Assembly: GCA_937983425.1 (NCBI GenBank)
Contig: CALJZZ010000122.1
Location: 99,285-163,284 of the forward strand
Reading direction: 5' to 3'
Length of the DNA: 64,000 nt
Origin: an uncultured Verrucomicrobiaceae bacterium
Lineage (GTDB): Bacteria; Verrucomicrobiota; Verrucomicrobiia; Verrucomicrobiales; Verrucomicrobiaceae
Position numbers and translations under genes: made by a program. The notes under the pieces are model-generated. The model saw only the letters and a list, made by a program, of their open reading frames with translations. It was not told the origin of the DNA and made no database searches. Below are positions 10,873 through 64,000 of the stretch, piece by piece. Position 1 is the first letter of the stretch. Every line of letters begins with the position of its first letter.

Positions 10873-10944
10873 GGACGAAAAAGGCGGGGTTTGGCCTAAA
10901 AAACGGGTCATCTGACCTGAATGGCAAGAAAATGCAGCTTTGCG

Positions 10945-11400
10945 TCAAGCAAGCACTTTATACTGAAGGTCATCACCTTTTGTGAATTGGATGCCCCAGG
11001 TGCCGGGCATCACGCGCGCATCGCCCCTGCCCTCCGGGAGTTTTGCGGTGCCCTTCGTGAGGTGCCGCCAGTTCACCGCGTCATCGGAGGCCAGATAAAT
11101 CGTCGGCGCGCCCCAGCCGACTGGCACGACGAACACCCCGCCCGTGTAAGCGACCGCCTTCGTGGCCCACGGCCCGTGATCCGCGCCCGGCGCGGCAAAG
11201 AAGGACTGCGTCCACGTCTTGCCATCGTCCTTCGAAACGAGAATGCGCGCCCCATGCCCCACAACGACAAACGCTCCGGCCTTCGGGTTCGGTTTGAAGT
11301 CACCACCGAAAGGAATCGCCTCGCGAAGCCTCGCATCCTCCGGGGATTCATTGGCGGCGAAAGCGGTGACGGCGAGCAGGAGAGGAAGCAGCTTTTTCAT
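10945..11400 (-). CDS. small secreted BNR/Asp-box protein
   Basis: Signal peptide MKKLLPLLLAVTAFAA from ATG 11400. One Asp-box is present, SKDDGKTW. Confidence 0.6.
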   Translation of the reverse strand: MKKLLPLLLAVTAFAANESPEDARLREAIPFGGDFKPNPKAGAFVVVGHGARILVSKDDGKTWTQSFFAAPGADHGPWATKAVAYTGGVFVVPVGWGAPTIYLASDDAVNWRHLTKGTAKLPEGRGDARVMPGTWGIQFTKGDDLQYKVLA

Positions 11401-11540
11401 GGTGGAGGCTGGAACGAGCGGGCCAAAGCGGGTCTGACAGGGGACTGGTGGCGCAAGGACGGACTTTTGATGCTCCAGCACCTACGGCGGGCCTGCATCT
11501 CGCTGCTTGAGACGGTCCTGGCATGGACGTAGGATGCCGC

Positions 11541-11759
11541 ATGAACACCGAACCTCCAGCCACAACCAGCCAGCCCGTCTCCGCCGAGGTGGCGGAAATG
11601 GCGCGCCAGGCGGTGCGGGACTTTCATGAGTGCTTTTGGTGGTGGAACCCCGACTTCACTCCGCAGACCGTGGAGGAGGTGCGCGAGGTGGTGCTGAATC
11701 TCCGCAAAGGGGGCCACCGTGCCTGGCAGCGGGCTCAGGAACTCAACTCATGCCTTTAA
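11541..11759 (+). CDS. small Trp-rich protein, candidate partner/antitoxin of the downstream nucleotidyltransferase
   Basis: MNTEPP...RDFHECFWWWNPDFTPQTVEEVREVVLNLRKGGHRAWQRAQEL. The stop at 11757-11759 overlaps the next start (11750) by 10 nt. An alternative start is at 11523. Confidence 0.5.
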   Translation: MNTEPPATTSQPVSAEVAEMARQAVRDFHECFWWWNPDFTPQTVEEVREVVLNLRKGGHRAWQRAQELNSCL

Positions 11760-12553
11760 CGACTCTCCAGAAACAAGTGCTGCGCGTTTTGGCGGCGAAT
11801 CGCAGTGAAGAGAGCCATTTCGCCGGCGGTCTGGTGCTCAACTCGGCGGATGATTCGCCGCGCTTCAGCCATGACTTCGACATTTTTCATGAGGCGGAGT
11901 CCGAGGTGGCGCGTGCCAGCGATCTGGATGTCGCAGCTTTGCGGGCGGCTGGTTATGCGGTGGAGCACGCGGTTGGTGATTGGGCGGCCCACACGAGTTT
12001 TCGCAAAGCGCGTCTGACGCATGAGGGCGAGGCACTGGAGATCGACTGGGCGGCGGACTCAGCCTTTCGTTTCTTCCCGATTCAAAGAGATGATGTGCTC
12101 GGCTGGCGGCTGCACCTCTTTGACATGGCCGCCAACAAGGCGCTGGCGCTGGCGGCACGCTCGGTGACTCGCGACTATGTGGACATCGTGGAACTGGACC
12201 GCACCTATCCGCTGGAGGCGGTGATTTGGGCCGCCTGCGGAAAGGATGAGGGCTTCAGCCCCATGCTGCTGCTGGAGATGATGCGGCGCTTTGCCCGGAT
12301 CAATCCACGCCAGCTTGAAACCATCCAGGCCCGTCAGCTCGATCCCATCGTCTTGAAAAAGGCGTGGATCGCGATGTCAGACCGGGCGGAGGCGGAGATC
12401 ACCCGGCTGGCGGACACGAGGCCGGAGGTTCCCATCGGGGTGGCTTTTGTGAATGCGCGGGGCGAGCCGGGTTGGATCGGCAGTGATCCCAGCCTGCGCA
12501 TTCATCGGCCTTCTGTGCGCGGCTGCCTGCCGGTGGTGCAAGGTGTCGAGTGA
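11750..12553 (+). CDS. nucleotidyltransferase, AbiEii/AbiGii toxin-like (DUF1814-type)
   Basis: Begins MPLTTLQKQVLRVLAAN. The minimal NTase motif is FAGGLVLNSADDSPRFSHDFDIFH (GG...DxD). Size (267 aa) and layout fit type IV TA toxins. Confidence 0.65.
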   Translation: MPLTTLQKQVLRVLAANRSEESHFAGGLVLNSADDSPRFSHDFDIFHEAESEVARASDLDVAALRAAGYAVEHAVGDWAAHTSFRKARLTHEGEALEIDWAADSAFRFFPIQRDDVLGWRLHLFDMAANKALALAARSVTRDYVDIVELDRTYPLEAVIWAACGKDEGFSPMLLLEMMRRFARINPRQLETIQARQLDPIVLKKAWIAMSDRAEAEITRLADTRPEVPIGVAFVNARGEPGWIGSDPSLRIHRPSVRGCLPVVQGVE

Positions 12554-53514: not shown

Positions 53515-54690
53515 ATGCGAATTTTTTTATTTCAAGCCGTGATTCTCTGCGCGCTGCCTGCCAGCGCTGCGGAGCCCTGGTTCGAGACCACCTGCCTTTT
53601 TCCGGTGACTCCAGCCAACAAGCCCAACTACCGCATTCCAGCCCTCATCCAGGCTCCAAATGGAGACCTCCTCGTCGTCTGTGAAAAGCGCAATGACGGA
53701 CCTGGCGACATCGGCGACCACGACATCGTCATGAAGCGCAGTTCCGACGGCGGCAAAACTTGGACCGGGGAAATCCTCATCCTCGACGATGTGGACCGCG
53801 TCTGCACCGACCTCACCTTGGGATTCGACCGCGTCACGCAAAAACTCTGGCTCTTCTTTTTAAAGGACAAGAAACAGTTCGCCCACCTCAGCAGCACGGA
53901 CAACGGACTCACCTGGCAGGGACCCGTCGTCATTCACGATCAGGTCACCAAACCCGAATGGGACCAACTGCGGGGCAAGCCGGACACAAAACCCTTCAAC
54001 CCCAAAAGTCACGCCCAGCGCTGGGAACGAGATTGGCATCAGCGCTACGGATGCGGTCCGGGCCATGCGATGGTGCAACTCAAATCCGGACGGCTGCTTG
54101 TGCCCGCGCGCCACCGCGAGGACATCGGGGGAGGCCGCCTTCGCAGTTTTGCCCACTGCTTTTACAGCGATGACCACGGCGCGTCCTGGCAACTCGGCGG
54201 CACCATCGGGATGCACACCAGCGAGTGCCAGTTCATCGAACTCAATGACGGCGGCATCCGCGTGATATCCCGAAACGAAAGCGCTGAAGACGCGCCTGAC
54301 AACCTGCGCCACCTCACCAGCATCTCAAAGGATGGCGGCCAAACCTGGAGCGCGCTCCGGCGTCAGGAAGAGCTCATCACACCCCGCTGTCATGGCAGCC
54401 TCGAGAGATTGGATGAAAAAACACTTCTGTTTTGCAGCCCGGCGTCGCCATTTCGTCAAAAGGAGCACCCCTACGGCCGCTACAACCTCACCATTCGGAT
54501 CAGTCACGACGAAGGCGCCAGTTGGTCGGCCGGGCGCGCCGTCTGGCCGCATCCAGGCTCTTATTCGGACATCGCAGTCATGACTGACGGAAGCATCGCC
54601 GTCGTTTACGAGCGCGCGGATAAAGGCAGCTCCCACTACTGGGACGAACTTCACTTCGCACGCTTCAACCCGGACTGGATCACACAATGA
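53515..54690 (+). CDS. secreted exo-alpha-sialidase (GH33, BNR repeats)
   Basis: Signal peptide, the YRIP motif (NYRIPAL) and five Asp-boxes: SSDGGKTW, STDNGLTW, SDDHGASW, SKDGGQTW, SHDEGASW. Confidence 0.88.
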   Translation: MRIFLFQAVILCALPASAAEPWFETTCLFPVTPANKPNYRIPALIQAPNGDLLVVCEKRNDGPGDIGDHDIVMKRSSDGGKTWTGEILILDDVDRVCTDLTLGFDRVTQKLWLFFLKDKKQFAHLSSTDNGLTWQGPVVIHDQVTKPEWDQLRGKPDTKPFNPKSHAQRWERDWHQRYGCGPGHAMVQLKSGRLLVPARHREDIGGGRLRSFAHCFYSDDHGASWQLGGTIGMHTSECQFIELNDGGIRVISRNESAEDAPDNLRHLTSISKDGGQTWSALRRQEELITPRCHGSLERLDEKTLLFCSPASPFRQKEHPYGRYNLTIRISHDEGASWSAGRAVWPHPGSYSDIAVMTDGSIAVVYERADKGSSHYWDELHFARFNPDWITQ

Positions 54691-54715
54691 CCGGTGCGTG
54701 ACGCTGCACATTTCG

Positions 54716-54848
54716 TCACGCAAGCATCTCTTTCATCACGTGGCCTTCCACGTTCGTGAGGCGGCGCCGGACGCCGTTGTGCTCGAAGGTGAGGCGTTCG
54801 TGATCGAGGCCGAGGAGGTGGAGGATGGTGGCGTTGAAGTCGTGGAGC
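54716..54848 (-). pseudogene. orphan 3'-terminal fragment (last 43 codons + stop) of a DUF1501 gene
   Basis: It encodes [43 protein letters not shown]. It is ~93% nt-identical (hand alignment) to 60784-60906, the 3' end of the intact DUF1501 gene. Homology stops at 54848, where an in-frame TAG occurs. Confidence 0.85.
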
Positions 54849-54980
54849 TATTGGCTTTCATATTTCGATGACCGGCAGCAAAGCCCCTCAACAGTCCCGT
54901 CCATTCAGCTTCCTATAAGTCCTTGGATGGAATTCGAAATTCACCATTGATTAGTGTTAAATTTACACCACAGATCGTGT

Positions 54981-55664
54981 ATGCCTCACACTTACCAGTA
55001 TCCGCGTGCCGCGCTGACCGTGGACTGCGTTGTTTTCGGCTTCGATGGAAGCGAGCTTCAGGTCCTGCTCATCCGCCGCGCCCTGGAGCCGTTCAAGGAC
55101 CGCTGGGCGCTGCCCGGCGGCTTCGTACGGGTCGAGGAAACGCTCGATGAAGCCGCGCGTCGTGAGCTGGAGGAGGAAACCGGGCTGCGGGATGTCTTTC
55201 TGGAGCAGCTTTACACCTTTGGCACCGTGAAACGCGATCCGCGTGAGCGTGTCGTCAGCGTAGCGTGGTTCGCGCTGGTGAAGCCCTCCGTTGTCACCGC
55301 CGACACCGACGCCGCCGAGGCCAAGTGGTTTTCCGTCAACGACGTTCCACCGCTCGCTTTCGACCACGCCTCCATCCTCGCCACCGCGCTCACCCGTCTG
55401 CGCGGCAAGCTCACCTACCAGCCCGTCGGCTTCGAGCTGCTGCCGCCGAAATTCACCCTCACCCAGCTTCAGCGCCTCTACGAGGCCGTCCTTGGCGAGG
55501 AGCTCGACAAACGAAACTTCCGCAAAAAAGCCCTCAGCCACGATCTCCTCATCCCCCTCAAAGAAAAACATCAGGAAGGCGCCCACCGTCCCGCCCAGCT
55601 CTTCCGCTTCGATCCGGTGAAATATGAGAGGCTGAAGAAGAAGGGCTTCTTGTTTGAGATATGA
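54981..55664 (+). CDS. nrtR: NrtR-like Nudix hydrolase / winged-helix transcriptional regulator (ADP-ribose responsive family)
   Basis: An apparently intact Nudix box [23 protein letters not shown] plus the C-terminal [28 protein letters not shown], characteristic of NrtR. The track ORF starts at 54954. Confidence 0.8.
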
Positions 55665-56002
55665 AAACCATCACCCTCTACCGTCCCGTCGGACCGAAAG
55701 AACTCGCCCTGATCGAGCAAAGCGGATGGAAAGCCTTTCCACCGCGTCTGCCAGACCAGCCGATCTTCTATCCCGTGATGAACGAGGAATACGCCATCCA
55801 GATCGCCCGCGACTGGAATGTGCCCGCCTCCGGTTCCGGTTTCGTCACCCGCTTCGCCGTCGATGCCGATTTCCTCAGCCGCTACGTCAAGCAAGTCGTG
55901 GGTGGCGACATGCACCGCGAACTCTGGGTGCCTGCGGAAGAACTGGAAGAGTTCAATCAACACATCATCGGCCTCATCGAGGTCACCCAACGATTCCCAT
56001 GA
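55661..56002 (+). CDS. conserved-looking 113-aa protein of unknown function
   Basis: [53 protein letters not shown]...[22 protein letters not shown] overlaps occur at both ends (55661, 55999). Confidence 0.7.
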
Positions 56003-56625
56003 CACTTTCGATTCAACCATATCTCGAACAACTGCCGCACTGGCCGCAAAGCGGCCGCCACATCCTCGCGCAGTTCGACCATGATTCGATCATCGTTTAT
56101 CAGGCATACCGGCCCTCGATTGCGCGATTCGCAGTCGAGCACCAGCGATTTGGCGGCGAGTTCAGCTACAGCCGCATGAGCTGGATCAAGCCCAACTTCC
56201 TCTGGATGATGTTCCGCTCAGGCTGGGCCGCCAAGGAAGGCCAGGAGCATATTCTTGCCGTCCGTCTTCAAAGACGCTTCTTCGATGACGTGTTTGTGTC
56301 CGCCGTGGCTTCCAACTACGGCGCCAGCGGCTTCTCCACGCACGAGGACTGGCAGTCCGCCGTGGCAAACTCCGACGCGCGCCTCCAGTGGGATCCAGAT
56401 CACGATCCGCTCGGCCACTGCGTCGAGCGCCGTGCCGTTCAACTTGGCCTCCGGGGTGAAATGCTTCGACGCTACGGTCAGGAGGTCGTCCTGAGCATCG
56501 AGGACATCACTCCTTTCGTGGTCGAGCAGCGCGCTAATTTGAAGAATGATTTCACCGATCTCAAAACTCCTTCAGAACGAGTTTACCAACCTTCGGGGCC
56601 ACTCACCCATTCACAACTCCCATGA
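55999..56625 (+). CDS. DUF4291-like protein
   Basis: ILAQFDHDSIIVYQAYRPSIA...RMSWIKPNFLWMMFRSGWAAKEGQEHILAV matches my recollection of the DUF4291 signature. Starts at ATG 55999. Confidence 0.65.
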   Translation: MTLSIQPYLEQLPHWPQSGRHILAQFDHDSIIVYQAYRPSIARFAVEHQRFGGEFSYSRMSWIKPNFLWMMFRSGWAAKEGQEHILAVRLQRRFFDDVFVSAVASNYGASGFSTHEDWQSAVANSDARLQWDPDHDPLGHCVERRAVQLGLRGEMLRRYGQEVVLSIEDITPFVVEQRANLKNDFTDLKTPSERVYQPSGPLTHSQLP

Positions 56626-57167
56626 CCCCCGCCCAAACCACCCGCGCCAGCAAGTTCCTCAGCCTTGTCCTGCGGCATGAACCGGGAGCCGCGCATGTCA
56701 CGCTCGATTCCGCCGGTTGGACGGCGGTGGAGACGCTCCTGGCCGGGTGTGCCCACGCGGGAAGACCGCTATCGCGCGCGGACCTGGAGCACATCGTCGG
56801 CACAAATGCGAAGAAACGCTTCGAGTTCAGTGTCGACGGCCTGCGCATCCGCGCCAGCCAGGGGCATTCGGTCGAGGTGGCGCTGGAGTATGCGGCGCAA
56901 GCGCCTCCGGAACTCCTCTTTCACGGCACCGCGACACGCTTCCTCGATTCCATCCGCGTAAAAGGCCTGCTCAAAATGCAGCGCCATCATGTGCATCTGT
57001 CCGCAGAGACCCGCGTCACCCTGGAGGTCGGCGCACGTCATGGAAAACCGGTCCTACTGACCATCCTCGCCAGCCAGATGCACAACGAAGGGCATGTCTT
57101 CTATCGCAGCACGAACGGCGTCTGGCGTATCGAGCATGTGCCGTCATTCTTCATCCATTTTCCATGA
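56622..57167 (+). CDS. kptA: RNA 2'-phosphotransferase, Tpt1/KptA family (NAD+-dependent)
   Basis: SKFLSLVLRHEP, RIRASQGHS, LFHGT, RHHVHLS: all four catalytic-motif regions are present. Confidence 0.88.
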   Translation: MTPAQTTRASKFLSLVLRHEPGAAHVTLDSAGWTAVETLLAGCAHAGRPLSRADLEHIVGTNAKKRFEFSVDGLRIRASQGHSVEVALEYAAQAPPELLFHGTATRFLDSIRVKGLLKMQRHHVHLSAETRVTLEVGARHGKPVLLTILASQMHNEGHVFYRSTNGVWRIEHVPSFFIHFP

Positions 57168-57661
57168 ACCAGCACATCCCTATCAACTATATGACGGGCG
57201 ACGCTACCCGGCCTGCTGGCGTTGGTCCCGCAATCATCGCTCATATCTGCAATGACGTTGGTGGGTGGGGCGCAGGCTTCGTGATGGCACTTTCCAAGCG
57301 ATGGAAGGAACCCGAGGCTCAATACAGGCTTTGGTTCAAAGGCAAGATAGCAGACGCTCAGCCCTTTTCGCTTGGCGAGGTGATGCTGGTTGAGGTAGGC
57401 ACGGGTGTTCATGTGGCAAACATGATCGCACAGCACGGCATACGCTGGCAGGGCAACGAGCCGCCTATCCGGTATGAAGCTCTGGATCAAGCCTTGGGCA
57501 GGCTGGCAGATGCAGCACATCGGATCGGTGCCTCTGTTCACATGCCGCGCATTGGGTGTGGGCTGGCTGGCGGCACATGGGAGCGCGTCGAGCCGCTGAT
57601 TCAATCCCGGTTGTCTGATCGTGGCATCGCCGTCGTGGTCTATGACTTTGCCGAATCATGA
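57164..57661 (+). CDS. macro-domain protein (ADP-ribose/Appr-1''-p processing)
   Basis: YMTGDAT...AIIAHICNDVGGWGAGFVMAL...VHMPRIGCGLAGGTW. Starts at ATG 57164 (ATGA overlap). Confidence 0.8.
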   Translation: MNQHIPINYMTGDATRPAGVGPAIIAHICNDVGGWGAGFVMALSKRWKEPEAQYRLWFKGKIADAQPFSLGEVMLVEVGTGVHVANMIAQHGIRWQGNEPPIRYEALDQALGRLADAAHRIGASVHMPRIGCGLAGGTWERVEPLIQSRLSDRGIAVVVYDFAES

Positions 57662-58683
57662 GGCACCCACTTCCAGACTCCATTCTTGGCTGCCTGCTCG
57701 GCACGGCAGCGGGAGATGCGCTGGGCCTGCCCTTGGAACGATTGACCCGGCGGCGCATCCAACACTGGACGGGAGCCGAGTTGCGTCACCGGCTTGTCTT
57801 CGGTTGTGGAATGCTGAGCGACGACACGGATCACACGCTGATGCTGGCCGCGGCGCTGCGTCGGCATTGCGATGACGCGGCCGCGATGCAGCGAGATTTC
57901 GGCCGCCAGTTGCGCTGGTGGCTGGCGGCGCTGCCCGCAGGCGTGGGATTGAGCACGGCGCGGGCGATCTTGAGGCTATGGATCGGTTTTCCAGCCTCCA
58001 GATCCGGCGTGAAATCGGCAGGCAATGGCGCGGCGATGCGTGGTGCGATTGTCGGCGTGATCTTTCGCGATGACGCGGCGATGCGGCATGAATTCGCCCT
58101 CGCAGCCTGCCGGGTGACCCACACCGACCCACGCGCGGAGGAATCCGCGCTGCTGGTGGCCGAGGCGGCGGCCCTGGCGGCACACCATGCGGAAACAAAA
58201 ACCGTCCTCGACACTCTGCGACCGCTGGTGACGAGTGAGGAGATGAAATCGCGCTTCGCAGCCATGGAAACCGGCCTGAGCGAAAAAATCAGCGTCAGCG
58301 ACTACGCGGCACGGATCGGCTGCGAGCATGGCGTGAGCGGTTTCGCGCCGAACTCGGTCGCGGCGGCGCTTTTTGGCTGGCTGCGGCATCGCGGCGATTT
58401 CGAGCGCGTTTTGACCGAACTCATCGTCTGCGGTGGCGACACGGACAGCGTGGCCGCCATTGCGGGAGGCATCTGCGGCACCGAAACGGGCGAAAGCGGC
58501 ATTCCAAAGGCGTGGATCACAGGAATCCGCGACTGGCCCCGCTCCGTCACCTTCATCCGCAGCATGGCGCAGGAAAGCGTCGCGCCGCCACGCGTGCTCT
58601 GGCCTGCCATGCTGCTCAGAAATCTCTTTTTTCTCGGCGTGGTGCTCACGCATGGTTTTTGCCGCTTGCTTCCACCTTATTGA
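57658..58683 (+). CDS. ADP-ribosylglycohydrolase family protein (DraG/ARH-like) with hydrophobic C-terminal tail
   Basis: GTAAGDALGLPLE, MLSDDTDHTLM, GNGAAMR, CGGDTDSVAAIAGGICG. The tail reads LLRNLFFLGVVLTHGFCRLL. Confidence 0.85.
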   Translation: MRHPLPDSILGCLLGTAAGDALGLPLERLTRRRIQHWTGAELRHRLVFGCGMLSDDTDHTLMLAAALRRHCDDAAAMQRDFGRQLRWWLAALPAGVGLSTARAILRLWIGFPASRSGVKSAGNGAAMRGAIVGVIFRDDAAMRHEFALAACRVTHTDPRAEESALLVAEAAALAAHHAETKTVLDTLRPLVTSEEMKSRFAAMETGLSEKISVSDYAARIGCEHGVSGFAPNSVAAALFGWLRHRGDFERVLTELIVCGGDTDSVAAIAGGICGTETGESGIPKAWITGIRDWPRSVTFIRSMAQESVAPPRVLWPAMLLRNLFFLGVVLTHGFCRLLPPY

Positions 58684-58713
58684 TTCCGCTAAATCTCCAC
58701 ATCTACCCACACC

Positions 58714-59739
58714 ATGTTCGGCCTTCGATTCATCAAGATTCCACCCACGACGCATGTTATTCAACACAGCGGCGGCAAAGTCGTCCGCGAGGGCGCGGGG
58801 ATTTCGTTCTTTTATTACTCGCCCACGACCTCGCTCGTGGCGGTGCCGGTGGGCAGCACGGACGTGCCGTTCATCTTTGAGGAACAGACAGTGGATTATC
58901 AAAGCGTGAGCCTGCAGGGCCAGATCACCTACCGCATCGCGGAGCCGAAGAAGGTGGCGGGGCTGATGGACTTCACGCTCGCGCCCAACGGACGCGGCTA
59001 TGCCTCGGAGGATCCGGAGAAGCTGCCGCAGCGTGTGATCAATCTCGTGCATGTGCTGGCGCGCGCGGAGATCGAGAAACTGCCGCTGCGGCAGGCATTG
59101 CGCGCTTCGGAGACGTTGGTGACGGCGATTCGCGCTCAACTCGGCACCTCGGCGGAGCTGGCGGCTCTGGGGATCGAAGTGCTGGGCCTTTCGCTGCTGG
59201 CGATCAAGCCGACACCGGAGACGGCGCGTGCTTTGGAGGCGGAAACACGCGAGCAACTGCTCAAGGGCGCGGACGAGGCCATCTTCATGCGGCGCAATGC
59301 CGCCGTGGAGCAGGAGCGCGCGATCAAGGAGAACGAGCTGAACACCGAGATTGCCGTGGAGAACAAGAAGCGGCAGATTCGCGAGACACAGATGGACGCG
59401 GAGAAGGCGGTGCAGGAAAAAGAGGCGCAACTGGAGCGCGCGAAGCTGGAATCGAGCATCGGTCTCGAAGACGAGCGCAAGAAGCTGGTGGCGCTGGCGG
59501 CTGAGAACGCAAAAGCGGAGTCCGACACACGCGCCTACGGCATCGAGGCCACGATGAAGGCGCTCGCCAGCACGGACGCGGCCGTGTTGCAGGCGCTGGC
59601 GACCAGCGGCATGAGGCCGCAGCAGTTGATCGCGTTCGCCTTCCAGGAACTGGCCGCGAAGGCGGACAAGATCGGCAATTTGAACATCTCGCCGGAACTG
59701 CTGAGCGAGTTGCTGGCGAATCCGGGATCGAAGAAATGA
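58714..59739 (+). CDS. SPFH/band-7 domain protein with long C-terminal coiled coil
   Basis: SPFH-like core (...VSLQGQITYRIAEPKKVAGLMDF...LGIEVLGLSLLAIKPTPETARALE) followed by a charged coiled coil. Confidence 0.7.
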   Translation: MFGLRFIKIPPTTHVIQHSGGKVVREGAGISFFYYSPTTSLVAVPVGSTDVPFIFEEQTVDYQSVSLQGQITYRIAEPKKVAGLMDFTLAPNGRGYASEDPEKLPQRVINLVHVLARAEIEKLPLRQALRASETLVTAIRAQLGTSAELAALGIEVLGLSLLAIKPTPETARALEAETREQLLKGADEAIFMRRNAAVEQERAIKENELNTEIAVENKKRQIRETQMDAEKAVQEKEAQLERAKLESSIGLEDERKKLVALAAENAKAESDTRAYGIEATMKALASTDAAVLQALATSGMRPQQLIAFAFQELAAKADKIGNLNISPELLSELLANPGSKK

Positions 59740-59745
59740 GTTTTG

Positions 59746-59819
59746 CACCGCAGAGGTGAGAAAACCGCAGAGATGAATTCAGAAATGTCTTTCTCTGCGG
59801 TTTTCTAAACTCTGCGGTG
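59746..59819 (+). terminator. nested 25-bp inverted repeat (possible terminator or protein-binding site)
   Basis: Outer arms are CACCGCAGAG (59746-59755) and CTCTGCGGTG (59810-59819). Inner perfect 15-bp arms are 59759-59773 and 59792-59806, with an 18-nt loop. There is no U-tract after the outer stem. Confidence 0.45.
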
Positions 59820-59835
59820 TGCCATCTGAGCTTGT

Positions 59836-60774
59836 ATGAACCGCCTGACTGAAACGAAGATCATCCTCGTCGTGCGCGCGACGCGGCTGGCGGATTTGAA
59901 GGCGAAGTTCGCGACGAAATCGCAGGCAAAGTTTTATGTGAGCCGGCTGGGCGGTGATTTCGGCGATTACGAGCGCGAGGACGCCGCCTACCAGCAGTCC
60001 ATCGCACAAACACGACGTACCCTCGGCGAATTGGGGCGCGTGCAGCTCGTGCAGCGGGCTTTTCTGCCCAATTTCGTGTTTGGAGAGCAGGACATCGTGG
60101 TGGCGCTGGGTCAGGACGGATTGGTGGCAAACACCTTGAAGTATCTCAACGGCCAACCGCTCGTGGGCGTGAATCCGGACCCGAAACGCTACGACGGCCA
60201 GCTTCTGCCATTCCAGGTGCCGCAGCTCGACAAGGTGATGCGCGAGGTGCTGCGCGGCGGACGGTCAAAACGCGAGGTAACGATGGCGGAGGCGAAATTG
60301 AACACCGGCCTGAGCCTGTGCGCGGTGAACGATCTCTTCATCGGCATGAAATCCCACGGATCGGCGCGGTATCGCATCGCGCTGGGCAATACGGCGGAGA
60401 ACCATTCATCCAGCGGTGTGATCGTCTCGACCGGCCTCGGTTCCACGGGCTGGTTCAAAAGCCTGATGGCGGGTTCGATGGCAGTGGCGGTTGCCTCAGG
60501 CCGTGCGGCGGCCACCGAGCCAAAGGACACGAGTTTCCCGTGGGAATCGAATCACCTCTTCTTCACCGTACGCGAGCCTTTCCCGAGCAACACAACCGCC
60601 GCAGCGCTGGTTTTCGGTCAGGTGACGGCGCAGCAGCCGCTTGTGATCGAATCGCTGATGGGCGAGAACGGCGTCATTTTCAGCGACGGCATCGAGCAAG
60701 ACTTTATCGAGTTCAACTCCGGAACCAAGGCGACGATTTCAATCTCGAAGCGCAAAGGAAAGCTGGTCGCATGA
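59836..60774 (+). CDS. diverged ATP-NAD kinase-family protein
   Basis: ALGQDGLVAN (compare GGDGT), VNDLFIG (compare NE), and SSGVIVSTGLGSTGW (compare DG.IVSTPTGSTAY). Confidence 0.65.
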   Translation: MNRLTETKIILVVRATRLADLKAKFATKSQAKFYVSRLGGDFGDYEREDAAYQQSIAQTRRTLGELGRVQLVQRAFLPNFVFGEQDIVVALGQDGLVANTLKYLNGQPLVGVNPDPKRYDGQLLPFQVPQLDKVMREVLRGGRSKREVTMAEAKLNTGLSLCAVNDLFIGMKSHGSARYRIALGNTAENHSSSGVIVSTGLGSTGWFKSLMAGSMAVAVASGRAAATEPKDTSFPWESNHLFFTVREPFPSNTTAAALVFGQVTAQQPLVIESLMGENGVIFSDGIEQDFIEFNSGTKATISISKRKGKLVA

Positions 60775-60780
60775 GTGGAG

Positions 60781-62232
60781 TCACACCACCATCTCTTTGA
60801 TCACACGGCCTTCCACGTTCGTGAGGCGGCGCCGGACGCCGTTGTGCTCGAAGGTGAGGAGTTCGTGGTCGAGGCCGAGAAGGTGCAGAATGGTGGCGTT
60901 GAAGTCGTAGAGCGGATGGATGTCCTTCACCGCTTTCTGGCCGAGTTCGTCGGTGACGCCGTGGCTGACGCCGGGCTTCACCCCGGCGCCAGTCATCCAG
61001 CAGGTGAAGCCGTCGGGATTGTGATCGCGGCCCTTCGCGCCTTTTTGGAAGAAGGGCATGCGGCCGAACTCGGTACACCAGACGACGAGCGTGTCCTGCA
61101 ACAGGCCGCGTTGTTTCAGGTCGCGGATCAACGCGGCGGCAGGCTGGTCGAGGATGCTGGCATGCACATCATACTGCGCCTTGAGATCGCTGTGGCCGTC
61201 CCAGTTGAGCTTGCCGCCGCTGGCGTAGGCGCCGTTGAAAAGCTGCACGCAGCGCACCCCGCGCTCGATGAGACGGCGGGCGAGGATGCAGTTCTTCGCG
61301 AAGGCGGCCTTGTCGGCGTTCTGCGTGTCGTCCGCGCCATACATTTTGAGAATGTGCGCGGGCTCGGTGCTGAGGTCGTTGATCTCGGGCACGCTGAGCT
61401 GCATGCGCGCGGCGAGTTCGTAGCTGGCGATGCGTGCGGCGAGCTTTTGATCGCCCGGGTTCGCTTCGAGATGCCTCGCGTTCATCTTTTGCAGCAACGA
61501 GCGGGCGGCTTGATCCGCCTGCGCGGACACACCAGGCGCGGAAAGATGTCGCACGGGGCTCTTCGAACTCATCGCGGTGCCTTGGAAGGCGGCGGGGAGA
61601 AAACCGGGTCCCCAGTTGTTGGCGCCATTCTGCGGCACGCCGCGTGGATCGGGAATGGCGACGTAGCTGGGCAGATTCTGGTTTTCGCTGCCGAGCGCAT
61701 ACGTCACCCACGAGCCGAGAGAGGGAAAACCATCGAGGGTGAAGCCGGTGGAGAGGAAATTCTCCGCCGGACCGTGCGTGTTGGATTTGCTGGTGAGCGA
61801 ATGTACGAAGGCGAGGTCGTCCGTCAGTTCCGCAAGATGGGGAATCATGTCGCTGACCCACTTGCCGGTTTGTCCGCGTGGTCGGAAGGTGTATTGCGGC
61901 CGCGCAAGATTGCCCGCCGGGCCTTGAAACGTCACCGCAGGTCCGCCGGGCAACGGTTTGTCGTCCCACTTGATGAGTTCGGGCTTGTAGTCCCATGTTT
62001 CGAGCTGGCTCACTGCGCCTGCGCAGAAGATGACGACGACATTCTTTGCCTTCGCCGGGAAGTGCGGTTGTCGCGGCGCATACGGCCGTGCCGGATCGAT
62101 CAACAGGCCGTCCGCGGCCAGCAGGCGCGTCAACGCGATCGAGCCCAGTGCTGTCGCGCTGCTTGAGAGGAAGCGGCGACGGTCGAGCAGGTGATGACCT
62201 GGGGGCGAGAGGTGTTCGGCGGAAGGAAGCAT
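60781..62232 (-). CDS. DUF1501 domain protein (sulfatase-fold) with Tat signal
   Basis: [18 protein letters not shown], plus TEFGRMPF...[21 protein letters not shown] and the conserved C-terminal [16 protein letters not shown]. Starts at ATG 62232. Confidence 0.85.
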
Positions 62233-62321
62233 GGACGGATGTCGGAAATGAAGAGCGCGTCTGGCACTCTCCACAACGCGCCGGGATTTTGCGTCCTATT
62301 GATGTCCACCGGAAAAATTTG

Positions 62322-64000
62322 ATGCAGACGCTCCCCGGCCAGCCACGTGCGGCGGCGGGAAATGCCTCGCCAAACGGGAGGCTGTCGGTCAAGGTGGGGG
62401 CTTCCGATTTCATGATCCAGTCGCTCGACGAATTCATCCGTGACGCCATGCAGGAGCATGATGTGGAGCGCGCGTCCGCGGAGGACACGATTTGCACGGG
62501 AACAAGGGGTGGAGCCGGCAGGCTCGGCGGGCTGGCCGGGCACCGGGTGGAGGATTTCATCGCACGCGGGGGCATGGGGGCGGTTTACCGGGCGCGGCAG
62601 GAGGTGCTGGAGCGCGAGGTGGCGGTGAAGGTGATGACCGGACAGGCCGACAGCGCGGAGGTGGCGGAGCGTTTCCGCCGGGAGGCACTGGTGCTGGGGC
62701 GCCTGGAGCATCCCAACATCGTGCCCATCTACGACCTGGGCCATGACGAGGACGGACACCTCTTTTACTCGATGAAGCTGGTGAAGGGCCGGACGCTGCA
62801 AACGCTCCTCAACGACCTGCGGAAGGAGCAGCCCGAAGCACTGCGCGACTCCAGTTTGAAACGCTTGCTGGATGTGTTCAGGAAGATTTGTGATGCGATC
62901 TCCTTTGCCCACAGCCGCGGTGTGCTGCATCGCGATCTGAAGCCGGACAACATCATGGTGGGCGAGTTCGGCGAGGTGCTGGTGATGGACTGGGGGCTGG
63001 CGAAGCTGCTGGGCAGCAATGACGAACCCAAAACGACTCCTTCATTCGACAGCAAGGACTCATCATTCAGCGGGACGCTGTCCGGGGCCGTGATGGGCAC
63101 GCCGCAATACATGAGTCCGGAGCAGGCGCTCGGGCAGAACGAGTCGCTGGACGTGCGGTCGGATGTCTATGCGCTGGGCGGCATCCTTTACGCGATCCTC
63201 ACGCTGCGCCCGCCGGTGGAAGGAAAGACGGCGGAGGAGGTGCTGAAGAAGGTGGGCAGCGGGCAGATCACCGCTCCGTCCCAACTGCACACCAGCACCA
63301 AAGCCAAAGGCGACGTGCCCGAAGCCAGCGCGATCAAACCGCTGCCGCATCTGGCGGGCGGGCGGGTGCCGGCGGCCCTGTCGTCCGTGGCGATGAAGGC
63401 GCTGGCGAAGGAACGTGCGCAGCGCTACCCGGATGCGCGCAGTTTGGGCGAGGACATCGAGAAATGGCAGAGCGGCTTCGCGACAATGGCGGAAGAGGCC
63501 GGGCTGGCGCGACAACTGACCCTTCTGGTCAAACGGCACAAGACGCCGTTCGTCATCGCCGCCGCCGCGTGGCTGCTGATCACATTGCTCGCCGTGATTT
63601 TTGTCTTCAATCTGCGTGAGAAGGAAAAGCGCGCGCTGGCTGGCGAGGCGTCGGCTGTTCAGGGGAGGGAGGCCGCCCGTGTGGCGCTGGCGAAATCGTC
63701 GATGGCGCTGGCGGAGGCGTCCCTGCGCGAGCGCAACGGACCGGCGATGCAGGAGTCGCTGCGGGCCGTGCCTGAGAACCTGCGTGATTCCACCTGGCAG
63801 TATCTGATGGACCAGTCCGACACGTCGTTTCGCACATTCGAGGACTCGGGAACGCAGATGACCGGCGTGGCGGCGCATCCGCTGCTGCCGCATGTGTTCG
63901 CTCTCGGGGATTCGACCGGAACGGTGCGCGTGATGGATGTGGCATCCGGCGATGTGCTGCGGAAGATCCAGCGCCCCACGGCTGCGGGTGAACCCAGGGC
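62322..64000 (+). CDS. Ser/Thr protein kinase with TM segment and C-terminal WD40-like region (partial, runs off right edge)
   Basis: Hand translation shows GGMGAVYRA, VAVKVM, HRDLKPDNIM, DWGLAK and GTPQYMSPE. A TM helix follows (FVIAAAAWLLITLLAVIFVF), then ...DSTGTVRVMDVASGDVL. An alternative start is at 62412. It is not in the ORF track because there is no stop in the window. Confidence 0.85.
   Translation, partial: MQTLPGQPRAAAGNASPNGRLSVKVGASDFMIQSLDEFIRDAMQEHDVERASAEDTICTGTRGGAGRLGGLAGHRVEDFIARGGMGAVYRARQEVLEREVAVKVMTGQADSAEVAERFRREALVLGRLEHPNIVPIYDLGHDEDGHLFYSMKLVKGRTLQTLLNDLRKEQPEALRDSSLKRLLDVFRKICDAISFAHSRGVLHRDLKPDNIMVGEFGEVLVMDWGLAKLLGSNDEPKTTPSFDSKDSSFSGTLSGAVMGTPQYMSPEQALGQNESLDVRSDVYALGGILYAILTLRPPVEGKTAEEVLKKVGSGQITAPSQLHTSTKAKGDVPEASAIKPLPHLAGGRVPAALSSVAMKALAKERAQRYPDARSLGEDIEKWQSGFATMAEEAGLARQLTLLVKRHKTPFVIAAAAWLLITLLAVIFVFNLREKEKRALAGEASAVQGREAARVALAKSSMALAEASLRERNGPAMQESLRAVPENLRDSTWQYLMDQSDTSFRTFEDSGTQMTGVAAHPLLPHVFALGDSTGTVRVMDVASGDVLRKIQRPTAAGEPR

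Follow-up and report, generated by a model that had tools for sequence, protein, structure and literature searches.

Three kinds of described systems come close to the locus reported here. In Escherichia coli, e14 and phage 21 are inserted within the 3' end of icd, which codes for a protein. A replacement end on the insert side keeps the gene intact, and about 130-165 bp of headless 3' sequence lie displaced beyond the insert, directly repeated (PMC6379469). e14 carries an integrase gene of its own, and its excision restores icd. In the T6SS effector-immunity arrays of Vibrio cholerae and in rhs loci, displacement of gene 3' ends without a recombinase is documented: a conserved gene acts as homologous anchor, the other end joins illegitimately, and the old 3' part is moved downstream and retained as an orphan (PMC5361080), leaving diverged alleles side by side. 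The displaced part there is a variable toxin tip with its immunity gene, and the process is recurrent, building arrays. The third comparison concerns the cargo: NrtR proteins are Nudix-related regulators of NAD metabolism, and their classical regulons contain NAD synthesis genes.

The locus described here lies in a window of 64,000 nt from an uncultured Verrucomicrobiaceae bacterium, the whole stretch of DNA that was analysed. An operon stands in the 3' end of a DUF1501 gene, and a headless copy of that end (L) lies on the far side of the operon, across from the intact end (R). In contrast to e14, no recombinase, empty site or sign of excision was found at the DUF1501 locus, and the operon that forms the cargo is an ordinary chromosomal one, free of DUF1501 sequence where it normally resides. 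In contrast to the T6SS and rhs loci, the conserved end of an unrelated gene is displaced, the cargo is a metabolic or regulatory operon, and there appears to have been one event. The layout is best read as a one-off rearrangement scar and not as a new mobile element. Its features are as follows:

53515-54690, + strand: sialidase (BNR) gene (Pfam BNR_2, E 5e-27), presumed original neighbour, in convergent orientation, of the displaced DUF1501 end
54695-54722: perfect 9-bp hairpin TGCGTGACG-N10-CGTCACGCA, read from the sequence, between the sialidase stop and the L fragment
54716-54847, - strand: L copy, the headless, displaced last 43 codons and TGA, a pseudogene remnant whose translation is a family-consensus C-terminus
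54848-54850, - strand: in-frame TAG (CTA on the + strand) directly 5' of L, junction J1
54849-54946: lower-GC filler of 98 nt, whose first 30 nt weakly resemble (15/30) the DUF1501 sequence 5' of R
54947-54971, + strand: left edge of the operon, a -35-like TTGATT and then the 21-bp candidate NrtR box TTAGTGTTAAATTTACACCAC (54951-54971)
54981-55664, + strand: nrtR, Nudix and winged helix (Pfam NrtR_WHD 3e-29, NUDIX 9e-25)
55661-56002, + strand: 113-aa protein without a family match, kept in the operon of other lineages
55999-56625, + strand: DUF4291 protein (Pfam 3e-63), in the variable middle of the operon
56622-57167, + strand: KptA/Tpt1 RNA 2'-phosphotransferase (Pfam 4e-45, NCBIfam 2e-70), variable middle
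57164-57661, + strand: macro-domain protein (Pfam Macro 5e-4, under the cut-off), variable middle
57658-58683, + strand: ADP-ribosylglycohydrolase (Pfam 6e-59)
58714-59739, + strand: SPFH/Band 7 protein (Pfam 3e-14)
59746-59819: 28-nt inverted repeat, 93% complementary with an 18-nt loop, between the SPFH gene and p312
59836-60774, + strand: p312, a distant NAD-kinase-like protein and the final operon gene
60775-60780: junction J2, GTGGAG, the 6 nt separating the p312 stop from the DUF1501 stop
60781-60912, - strand: R copy, the last 43 codons and stop of the intact DUF1501 gene, its functional end, which holds most of the derived changes
60781-62232, - strand: intact DUF1501 gene (Pfam 2e-143), 483 aa when started at the ATG that other assemblies use
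62218-62232: second breakpoint relative to loci L001-L004, whose homology ends at the DUF1501 5' end

The direct repeat reported in the first-pass annotation is real. MAFFT alignment and a repeat finder agree on one long repeat (54715-54859 against 60780-60924, 88% over 145 nt), with both copies in the same orientation and 6065 nt apart. Its coding core comprises 44 codons on the minus strand, including the TGA stop, and differs at 12 of 132 positions (90.9%; blastn E 2e-48), where about 9 mismatches had been counted; the positions first given for the right copy, which is 60781-60912, were 5-7 nt off register. The peptide given for the left copy matches exactly, and the in-frame TAG at its abrupt edge and the drop in GC beyond were likewise recovered. 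A run of 53 nt within the core is free of mismatches, and both extremities of the repeat carry mismatches. On the 3' side, homology ends 1 base past the stop codon, beyond which identity is shuffle-like (2/10, 4/20 and 6/30). On the 5' side, identity falls from 91% to 15/30, which still exceeds shuffles (P 0.004 with four lengths tried), before background is reached; such residual identity in the 30 nt 5' of L is as expected for an illegitimate joint. J2 looks complex: the last 9-11 nt of R equal the ancestral p312 tail in sense orientation.

Judged from its sequence, the cargo is an operon predicted to be under NrtR control, and it has a promoter and an NrtR box of its own. The candidate box fits the palindromic core GT-N7-AC described for NrtR sites (PMC2330246) and is conserved upstream of nrtR in L074, L076 and L077. 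The match of the nrtR product to the NCBIfam ADPR-responsive repressor (2e-49) is under the family cut-off. As in NrtR regulons, the operon opens with a Nudix and winged-helix NrtR behind a palindromic box; unlike the classical ones, it continues with enzymes of ADP-ribose derivatives (KptA, macro domain, ADP-ribosylglycohydrolase, DUF4291 or NADAR), the SPFH protein and the kinase-like protein. Gene content varies between strains; the DUF4291 gene, for example, is missing from L001-L004. The cargo has a slightly lower GC content, and by tetranucleotide composition no other segment of the window deviates as much.

The operon has another home in four other Verrucomicrobiaceae lineages. In L074, L076/77 and L089/90 it lies between asd and ykuD, and in L092 it lies ahead of a NAPRTase gene, a further likeness to NrtR regulons. 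No DUF1501 sequence was found near the operon in these lineages, and neither asd nor ykuD is present in the 64-kb window. Homology to the other copies starts at 54947-54952, at the promoter and NrtR box, and ends at 60767-60775, at the p312 stop; with these edges, the insert is exactly one operon. That the cargo is an insertion, as had been proposed, is thus borne out: it is lineage-specific, and the event is deduced from synteny in other lineages, not from an empty site.

Within the species-level cluster, the layout of gene end, cargo and headless end, with both junctions, is identical in every readable assembly. An independent ENA assembly contains a 100% identical contig, and the same junctions recur in assemblies from NCBI, JGI and Logan, which rules out an assembly artefact. 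The sialidase gene directly beside an intact DUF1501 gene was not found in any of the cluster assemblies read (three look-ups with some overlap, of 13, 16 and 9 contigs). Intermediate states are invisible, because the database holds no sequences with sialidase identities between 82% and 99% or DUF1501 identities between 94% and 97%. The cargo had been described as free of integrase, recombinase and transposase genes, and a domain scan agrees: neither these nor excisionase domains were found in the cargo, in the called genes within ~10 kb on either side or in 30 other large ORFs of the window. Neither the loci fetched from a genome scan nor a metagenome pattern scan showed a second occupied target, and no other headless DUF1501 end was found. 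Viral contigs contained no DUF1501 C-terminus, and searches for a mobile element gave no phage or plasmid match.

The sialidase gene is 99% identical in L001-L004, and DUF1501 orthologues are 85-97% identical across Verrucomicrobiales. The DUF1501 ORF extends to a GTG at 62274. On its 5' side, L001-L004 carry a PSCyt/PSD1 partner gene and the window a divergent Ser/Thr kinase-WD40 gene. The SASA, sulfatase and PSCyt genes upstream of DUF1501 in L001-L004 fit the sialidase functionally across the insert, which suggests that DUF1501 and sialidase adjoined each other before the insertion. The filler has no homologues anywhere beyond the same locus in the same species cluster.

L and R are diverged alleles. 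They belong to the same orthologue group, true DUF1501 paralogues being only ~53% identical, so the left copy is a displaced, headless DUF1501 3' end, as first described. dS between them is 0.23, and L is as similar to the distant orthologue L006 (90.9%) as to R. L has kept the family-consensus residues, and the majority of derived changes lie in R: polarised with three outgroups, the 12 differences comprise 7-8 derived in R and 3-4 in L, with 3/4 of L's own changes synonymous. On this base of 12 sites, a fresh duplication followed by neutral decay of L is rejected (binomial P 0.001-0.007). Together with the mostly synonymous nature of L's changes, the excess in R implies that L was within a working gene until shortly before its truncation. 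The two final codons hold three of the R-derived changes, which may have arisen separately, through a tail swap at J2. In the rest of the DUF1501 gene, window and L001 differ by a dS of 0.30 in a mosaic of blocks, and alleles as diverged as L and R apparently circulate in this cluster. Recombination tracts are frequent in the gene. From the p312 3' part through R (60629-60918), the window differs from L001 by one mismatch, and divergence returns 6 nt past the repeat; R itself is 100% identical between the window and L001-L004.

We lean, with some reserve, towards a single recombinase-free event, homology-anchored or illegitimate, that inserted the NrtR operon into the 3' end of DUF1501 and left this end in two copies. 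The sequence of steps and the route of recombination that we infer would be as follows. In the ancestor shared by this species-level Verrucomicrobial cluster, a complete chromosomal operon, with its promoter and NrtR box and reaching as far as the stop of its final gene, would have entered the last 44 codons of a DUF1501 gene converging on the sialidase gene. On the side of the gene, the R copy would keep the reading frame full-length, while the resident 3' end (L), its native hairpin and the downstream sialidase would have been displaced by 6 kb, leaving L as a dead remnant. The most likely route would be homology-anchored recombination with DNA of a related strain, one end pairing within DUF1501 and the other joining illegitimately at patchy microhomology ~132 nt before the stop; this would be homology-facilitated illegitimate recombination or a Campbell-type single crossover. 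The route needs a donor in which the operon already adjoined a DUF1501 gene, unless allelic recombination replaced R after a plain duplication; searches found no such donor.

The first-pass annotation had instead seen a site-specific element supplying a surrogate terminus. Of that interpretation, the displaced end, the lineage-specific insertion and the recombinase-less cargo stand; the element is not supported. An integrative unit of cargo and R, now decayed or dependent on functions in trans, with a surrogate end of DUF1501 in its attachment site like those at icd, is very improbable: the searches described above found no recombinase-type domain, empty site, second target or viral, phage or plasmid counterpart. 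The boundaries of the repeat, with mismatches at both ends, are also unlike the identical core expected of att sites, and in other lineages the operon is a resident chromosomal unit between asd and ykuD, without DUF1501 sequence. Such an element would account for the geometry, which resembles that of e14 with its displaced 163-bp pseudo-icd' and prophage-supplied gene end (PMC6379469), for derived residues in R and consensus residues in L, as expected if R came from outside, for the near-identical block ending just past the repeat and for the slightly deviant composition. Nothing positive was found for the proposed fallbacks of an old degraded island or a satellite mobilised in trans; the third, recombination between DUF1501 copies, whether diverged copies or alleles, fits best. 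A somewhat less improbable scenario is intragenomic: replication template switching or staggered-break repair would have brought the operon, as a copy or by relocation, from asd-ykuD into the 3' end of DUF1501, with a 134-bp target duplication, R later diverging by allelic recombination or tail selection. It would yield both junctions and the direct-repeat geometry in one event without a pre-adjacent donor, and the complex J2 and the frequent recombination tracts are consistent with it. However, a neutral L copy does not fit the R-excess of derived changes or the mostly synonymous nature of those in L, and swapping R up to codon -9 from an insert-less donor leaves ~27 nt of anchoring homology.

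It is also conceivable, if rather unlikely, that L is what remains of a second copy of the same orthologue, which with its PSCyt partner once stood beside the sialidase gene. A deletion from upstream of nrtR would have spared only its last 44 codons, after the operon had been rearranged downstream of the other copy. The identity of L to both R and L006 is at the divergence level of orthologues from different genera, the mainly synonymous changes suggest an L that was functional for most of its history, and homology stopping at the stop codon is expected for two gene copies. Other rearrangement breakpoints occur at the same locus, and tandem PSCyt-DUF1501 operons are known in the family (L005, L095), but those tandem copies are distant paralogues (41-53%) outside this subfamily. 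Upstream remains of a second gene were not found in filler, cargo or window, nor was an intact copy with an L-type end among the 120 best DUF1501 homologues, in the cluster or elsewhere. Moreover, this reading needs two independent events that happened to leave the same gene segment, equally oriented, on both sides of one operon.

Finally, several smaller features of the locus deserve mention. The hairpin between sialidase and L, whose right arm holds the last codon and stop of the L fragment, has a fold energy of -13.9 / -16.9 kcal/mol and was not called by a simple terminator scan, because it has no T run. The macro-domain protein is weakly similar to the DarG macro domain. p312 has no Pfam match, and its NCBIfam NAD kinase match (7e-5) is under the cut-off; some sources name its homologues 'NAD kinase' or 'sugar kinase'. 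The pair of SPFH gene and p312 is conserved out to Rhizobium replicons, and the inverted repeat between the two genes is shared with L074.

The NrtR-regulated NAD/ADP-ribose operon is bracketed by one long direct repeat, 54715-54859 against 60780-60924 at a spacing of 6065 nt, so that the duplicated DUF1501 3' end described by the first-pass annotation is borne out by both alignment and a repeat finder. The coding core of the repeat lies at 54716-54847 (L, the headless displaced end) and 60781-60912 (R, the same end in the intact DUF1501 gene), in the same orientation on the minus strand. It comprises the final 43 codons and TGA stop of the DUF1501 gene, 132 nt with 12 mismatches (90.9% identity). 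The intact gene is present on one side of the insert only, and its duplicated 3' ends flank the cargo. The peptide previously read from L matches its translation exactly, and the in-frame TAG reported at its edge sits directly 5' of L. Homology between L and R stops one base beyond the stop codon; 5' of L, identity drops from 91% to 15 of 30 positions (P 0.004 versus shuffles, four lengths tried) and then to background. A mismatch-free run of 53 nt lies mid-repeat with mismatches towards both ends, a pattern in which the age of the event could have blurred an identical crossover core of the kind that two att sites share. The features of the locus are, from left to right:

left of the sialidase gene, minus strand: PAD, CN-hydrolase and ribokinase genes
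ending at 54690, plus strand: sialidase gene
54695-54722: perfect 9-bp hairpin between the sialidase stop and L, its right arm holding L's last codon and stop
54716-54847, minus strand: L
54849-54946: filler, 98 nt after L, unique and of lower GC
54981-55664: nrtR, first cargo gene
after nrtR, in this order: genes for a 113-aa protein, DUF4291, KptA/Tpt1, a macro-domain protein, an ADP-ribosylglycohydrolase, an SPFH protein and p312
58714-60774: the SPFH and p312 pair
59836-60774, plus strand: p312, a distant NAD-kinase-like protein, last cargo gene
60763-60795: putative tail-exchange junction
60781-60912, minus strand: R, the 3' end of the intact DUF1501 gene, which is convergent with p312 (stops 6 nt apart)
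upstream of DUF1501, divergent: Ser/Thr kinase-WD40 gene in place of the usual PSCyt/PSD1 partner

The whole 64-kb window lacks a PSCyt gene, leaving DUF1501 orphaned here. Homology to the close relatives ends at the 5' end of DUF1501 (window 62218-62400 versus L001 7254-10006), and in these relatives the PSCyt/PSD1 partner gene overlaps the DUF1501 start.

Chance and misassembly are ruled out as sources of the repeat by the blastn E-value and by independent assemblies: a 100% identical contig exists in one of them, and the same junctions recur in NCBI, JGI, ENA and Logan assemblies, so the layout is not an artefact. The first-pass observation is confirmed, and its interpretation partly supported. 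The L copies of the window and of the close relatives L001-L004, members of the same species-level cluster, differ at two sites, 54768 and 54734; at one of them (CGG versus CAG) the window's L shows the R state, which may mean that a short stretch of R was copied onto L by gene conversion, or that the mutation arose in parallel. In the metagenome-assembled genome GCA_003545395.1 (locus L083, ~11280-11300), the L copy is interrupted by an 18-nt gap and NN; the repeat probably misled the assembly there, and a real deletion is less likely.

What was inserted? The cargo regulator combines a Nudix domain with a C-terminal winged helix (Pfam NUDIX 9e-25, NrtR_WHD 3e-29), and upstream of the operon lies a 21-bp palindromic candidate NrtR box, TTAGTGTTAAATTTACACCAC (54951-54971), which is kept in three other lineages. 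NrtR sites have been described as sharing a GT-N7-AC palindrome core (PMC2330246), which the box fits, making it a candidate operator; promoter and terminator consensus scans were uninformative. Homologues of p312 are widespread in Verrucomicrobia, and loci of other lineages (L074, L076/L077, L089/L090; p312 87-94% identical) have the same operon, nrtR to p312 with SPFH included, in the interval from asd to ykuD; in L092 a NAPRTase gene follows it. No DUF1501 sequence was detected near the operon by tblastn and blastn in L074-L077 or among the called genes of L089, L090 and L092; in none of the five other lineages examined does the operon adjoin DUF1501. Its usual neighbours (asd, ykuD, esterase, PQQ protein) are represented in the window only by paralogues of 28-30% identity. 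Window homology to the other operon copies starts at 54947-54952 and ends at 60767-60775, that is, it runs from a -35-like hexamer and the 21-bp box to the p312 stop, so the inserted unit is exactly one putatively self-regulated operon. This makes the cargo a resident chromosomal operon rather than an island.

The operon also varies between near-identical strains. At the position of the window's DUF4291, KptA and macro protein, in the middle of the operon, L001-L004 carry NADAR, a second glycohydrolase and a different macro protein. The swapped middle corresponds to window 55668-57680 and L001 14463-16857, with strain flanks ~98.5% identical, and one breakpoint falls within the glycohydrolase gene, which is 86% identical over its N-terminal third and 100% identical thereafter. 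In L001 (13461-14506) gene calling splits the ADP-ribosylglycohydrolase orthologue into two ORFs of 224 and 124 aa, and in L002 and L004 it yields a truncated 234-aa ORF; the gene is probably disrupted in this strain group. The cargo differs somewhat in composition from its surroundings: its GC is 60.7% compared with 64.2 ± 1.6 for equal-sized segments, and in tetranucleotide usage no other segment of the window deviates more. The deviation is modest, however (~2.6 sd), and exchange of cassette genes among relatives suffices to explain it. The SPFH and p312 pair, annotated 'SPFH domain-containing protein | sugar kinase', also occurs on large Rhizobium replicons (e.g. NZ_CP013536.1; ~66% nucleotide identity), so that the pair must be far older than the surrounding operon. 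Between the two genes lies a 28-nt inverted repeat (59746-59819; 93% complementary, 18-nt loop), found at the same place in L074.

The history of the two repeat copies is recorded in their differences. The DUF1501 protein is 85-97% identical across the order, and the repeat region is the best-conserved DNA of its gene, with a dS to outgroups of 0.45 versus 0.7-0.8 for the rest of DUF1501. True paralogues are ~53% identical to either copy, compared with 91% here, which places L in the same very conserved orthologue group; an origin from a random DUF1501 paralogue is rejected. L matches R and the orthologue of L006, a non-syntenic genome, equally well (90.9%). The L copies of the relatives encode the exact family-consensus C-terminus but for one Y-to-H change, and R has five unusual residues which, across the 120 best homologues, occur in this lineage alone; no intact copy with an L-type end is found among these 120. 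Polarity was assigned at the 12 differing sites with three DUF1501 orthologues (L005, L006, L095; 89-94% identical), whose contexts differ and which were used only as outgroups: R accounts for 7-8 of the derived changes and L for 3-4, and of the four in L three are synonymous. If L had been neutral since a fresh duplication, ~78% of the changes would be expected in L (binomial P 0.001-0.007 for the observed split), and the polarity of changes therefore rejects the idea that the target site was freshly duplicated and L then decayed neutrally. The dS between L and R is 0.23, half of the outgroup distance, and resembles the value for window versus L001 across the remainder of DUF1501 (0.30), a mosaic of identical and 8-14% diverged blocks. 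L and R thus represent two alleles that evolved inside working genes, and the truncation of L is only recent on that scale. The mosaic spans 59836-62218 and has a block edge at 60919, 6 nt past R's 5' edge, a coincidence with a chance of ~7% by a rough count of block boundaries.

The first-pass annotation had read the arrangement as site-specific insertion by an element supplying a surrogate terminus, for which sialidase directly beside an intact DUF1501 gene would be the empty site. Four search routes failed to find one. Three overlapping exact look-ups returned 13 contigs with the window sialidase, 16 with the close relatives' DUF1501 and 9 with the window p312; none contains an empty site, every place shown being occupied with identical junctions, which indicates that the insertion is fixed in the cluster. 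A sialidase scan at one genome per species gave 63 loci, none of them syntenic, and the sialidase orthologues of 60 other species have neither DUF1501 nor ribokinase nor cargo in their vicinity. Beyond the cluster, the closest sialidase is 82% identical and has unrelated neighbours. A metagenome pattern scan for both tail types yielded a single contig, of the L001 type, and no second target. Nor did the same cargo appear at DUF1501 3' ends of other genomes, as that reading anticipated, in the fetched loci or the metagenome scan. There are no intermediate relatives in public data.

Mobile-element machinery is likewise missing. In agreement with the first-pass annotation, none of the eight cargo proteins matched a recombinase, transposase or excisionase domain in Pfam, NCBIfam and PADLOC scans; such domains are also missing from the precomputed Pfam families of genes called up to ~10 kb to the left and right, and from the 30 other large window ORFs. 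The window has no tRNA gene, viral contigs gave no DUF1501 C-terminus, and phage and plasmid collections contained no related element, matching only through the distant SPFH and sugar-kinase pair of the Rhizobium replicons and a Nudix protein of a Streptomyces phage. An integrase-type element, modelled by e14 at icd (PMC6379469), is therefore very unlikely despite the agreement in geometry, with direct repeats of the target gene's 3' end flanking the insert here as they do for e14 and phage 21. Elements of that type hold a recombinase gene, usually beside one att site, whereas the cargo is without one; they carry the surrogate end wherever they occur, whereas the operon at asd-ykuD has no DUF1501 end. 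In sum, the geometry speaks for the site-specific reading, whereas the missing recombinase, the lack of an empty site or of a recurrence elsewhere, and the operon's lack of a surrogate end at its usual locus speak against it.

How, then, did the operon come to lie beside DUF1501? The direct-repeat geometry points to one event that made both junctions, and we favour, at somewhat better than an even chance, homology-anchored recombination of DNA from a related strain. One DNA end would pair within DUF1501, whose 3' end is its best-conserved DNA, and the other would join illegitimately at patchy microhomology, ~132 nt before the stop. Such displacement without a recombinase has precedents in T6SS effector-immunity modules and rhs loci (PMC5361080); here too a conserved anchor gene, DUF1501, stands on one side and the ends are different alleles. 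Upstream of DUF1501, L001-L004 have SASA, sulfatase and PSCyt genes, a functional fit with the sialidase beyond the insert that suggests that DUF1501 and sialidase were convergent neighbours with a common hairpin before the insertion. The weakness of this route is its donor: none with the operon already beside DUF1501 is known, nor does one occur among the five other lineages. That difficulty disappears if the rearrangement took place within one genome, by template switching and a 134-bp duplication followed by allelic replacement of R, but this scheme fits the polarity data less well and we regard it as improbable. The main rival takes L as the remnant of a second DUF1501 copy. It accounts for the divergence of L and R but requires that two events coincided, and when DUF1501 and filler were searched by tblastn and blastn in the window and all loci, no further DUF1501 or PSCyt remains came to light, including the upstream remains of a separate tandem copy that the first-pass annotation had named as evidence against insertion; we consider it unlikely.

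In kind, the locus is a relocation scar confined to this lineage, and scars of this general type are already known. The two convergent genes at the right junction also seem, from comparison of their homologues, to have exchanged tails. The p312 C-terminus is LVV* in ~100 of 120 homologues and LVA* only in this lineage, the DUF1501 C-terminus is MLA* or similar in the family and MVV* only in this lineage, and the final 9-11 nt of R are the same as the ancestral tail of p312 read in the sense direction. The exchange might go back to a tiny inversion with the imperfect inverted tails as its endpoints, to a fold-back junction, or to selection favouring a stop-spanning hairpin; a hairpin at this junction was tried as a candidate, and folding was no better than for shuffled sequence. 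A far more speculative proposal, to which we give little credence, is that the conserved DUF1501 3' end serves as a recombinase-free landing pad for relatives' operons, or that the NrtR operon and an R-type end form a minimal cassette moved in trans by an integrase elsewhere, the tail exchange then being a footprint of the mechanism.

The locus provides a clean, datable case from Verrucomicrobia in which a complete regulated operon reached a new place on the chromosome with no mobile-element machinery, and in which duplication of its 3' end preserved the target gene. It also calls for caution: a displaced end, cargo and intact end are often read as an integrase-borne island, and here every other hallmark is missing. 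For annotation, the 132-nt fragment becomes a pseudogene remnant and the module a strain-variable NrtR operon, not a genomic island. Elsewhere in the window (10921-12553), a 307-aa ORF with a weak match to AbiEii nucleotidyltransferase toxins (E 5e-6) follows a 203-aa ORF that matches no family, and the two may form a type IV toxin-antitoxin pair.
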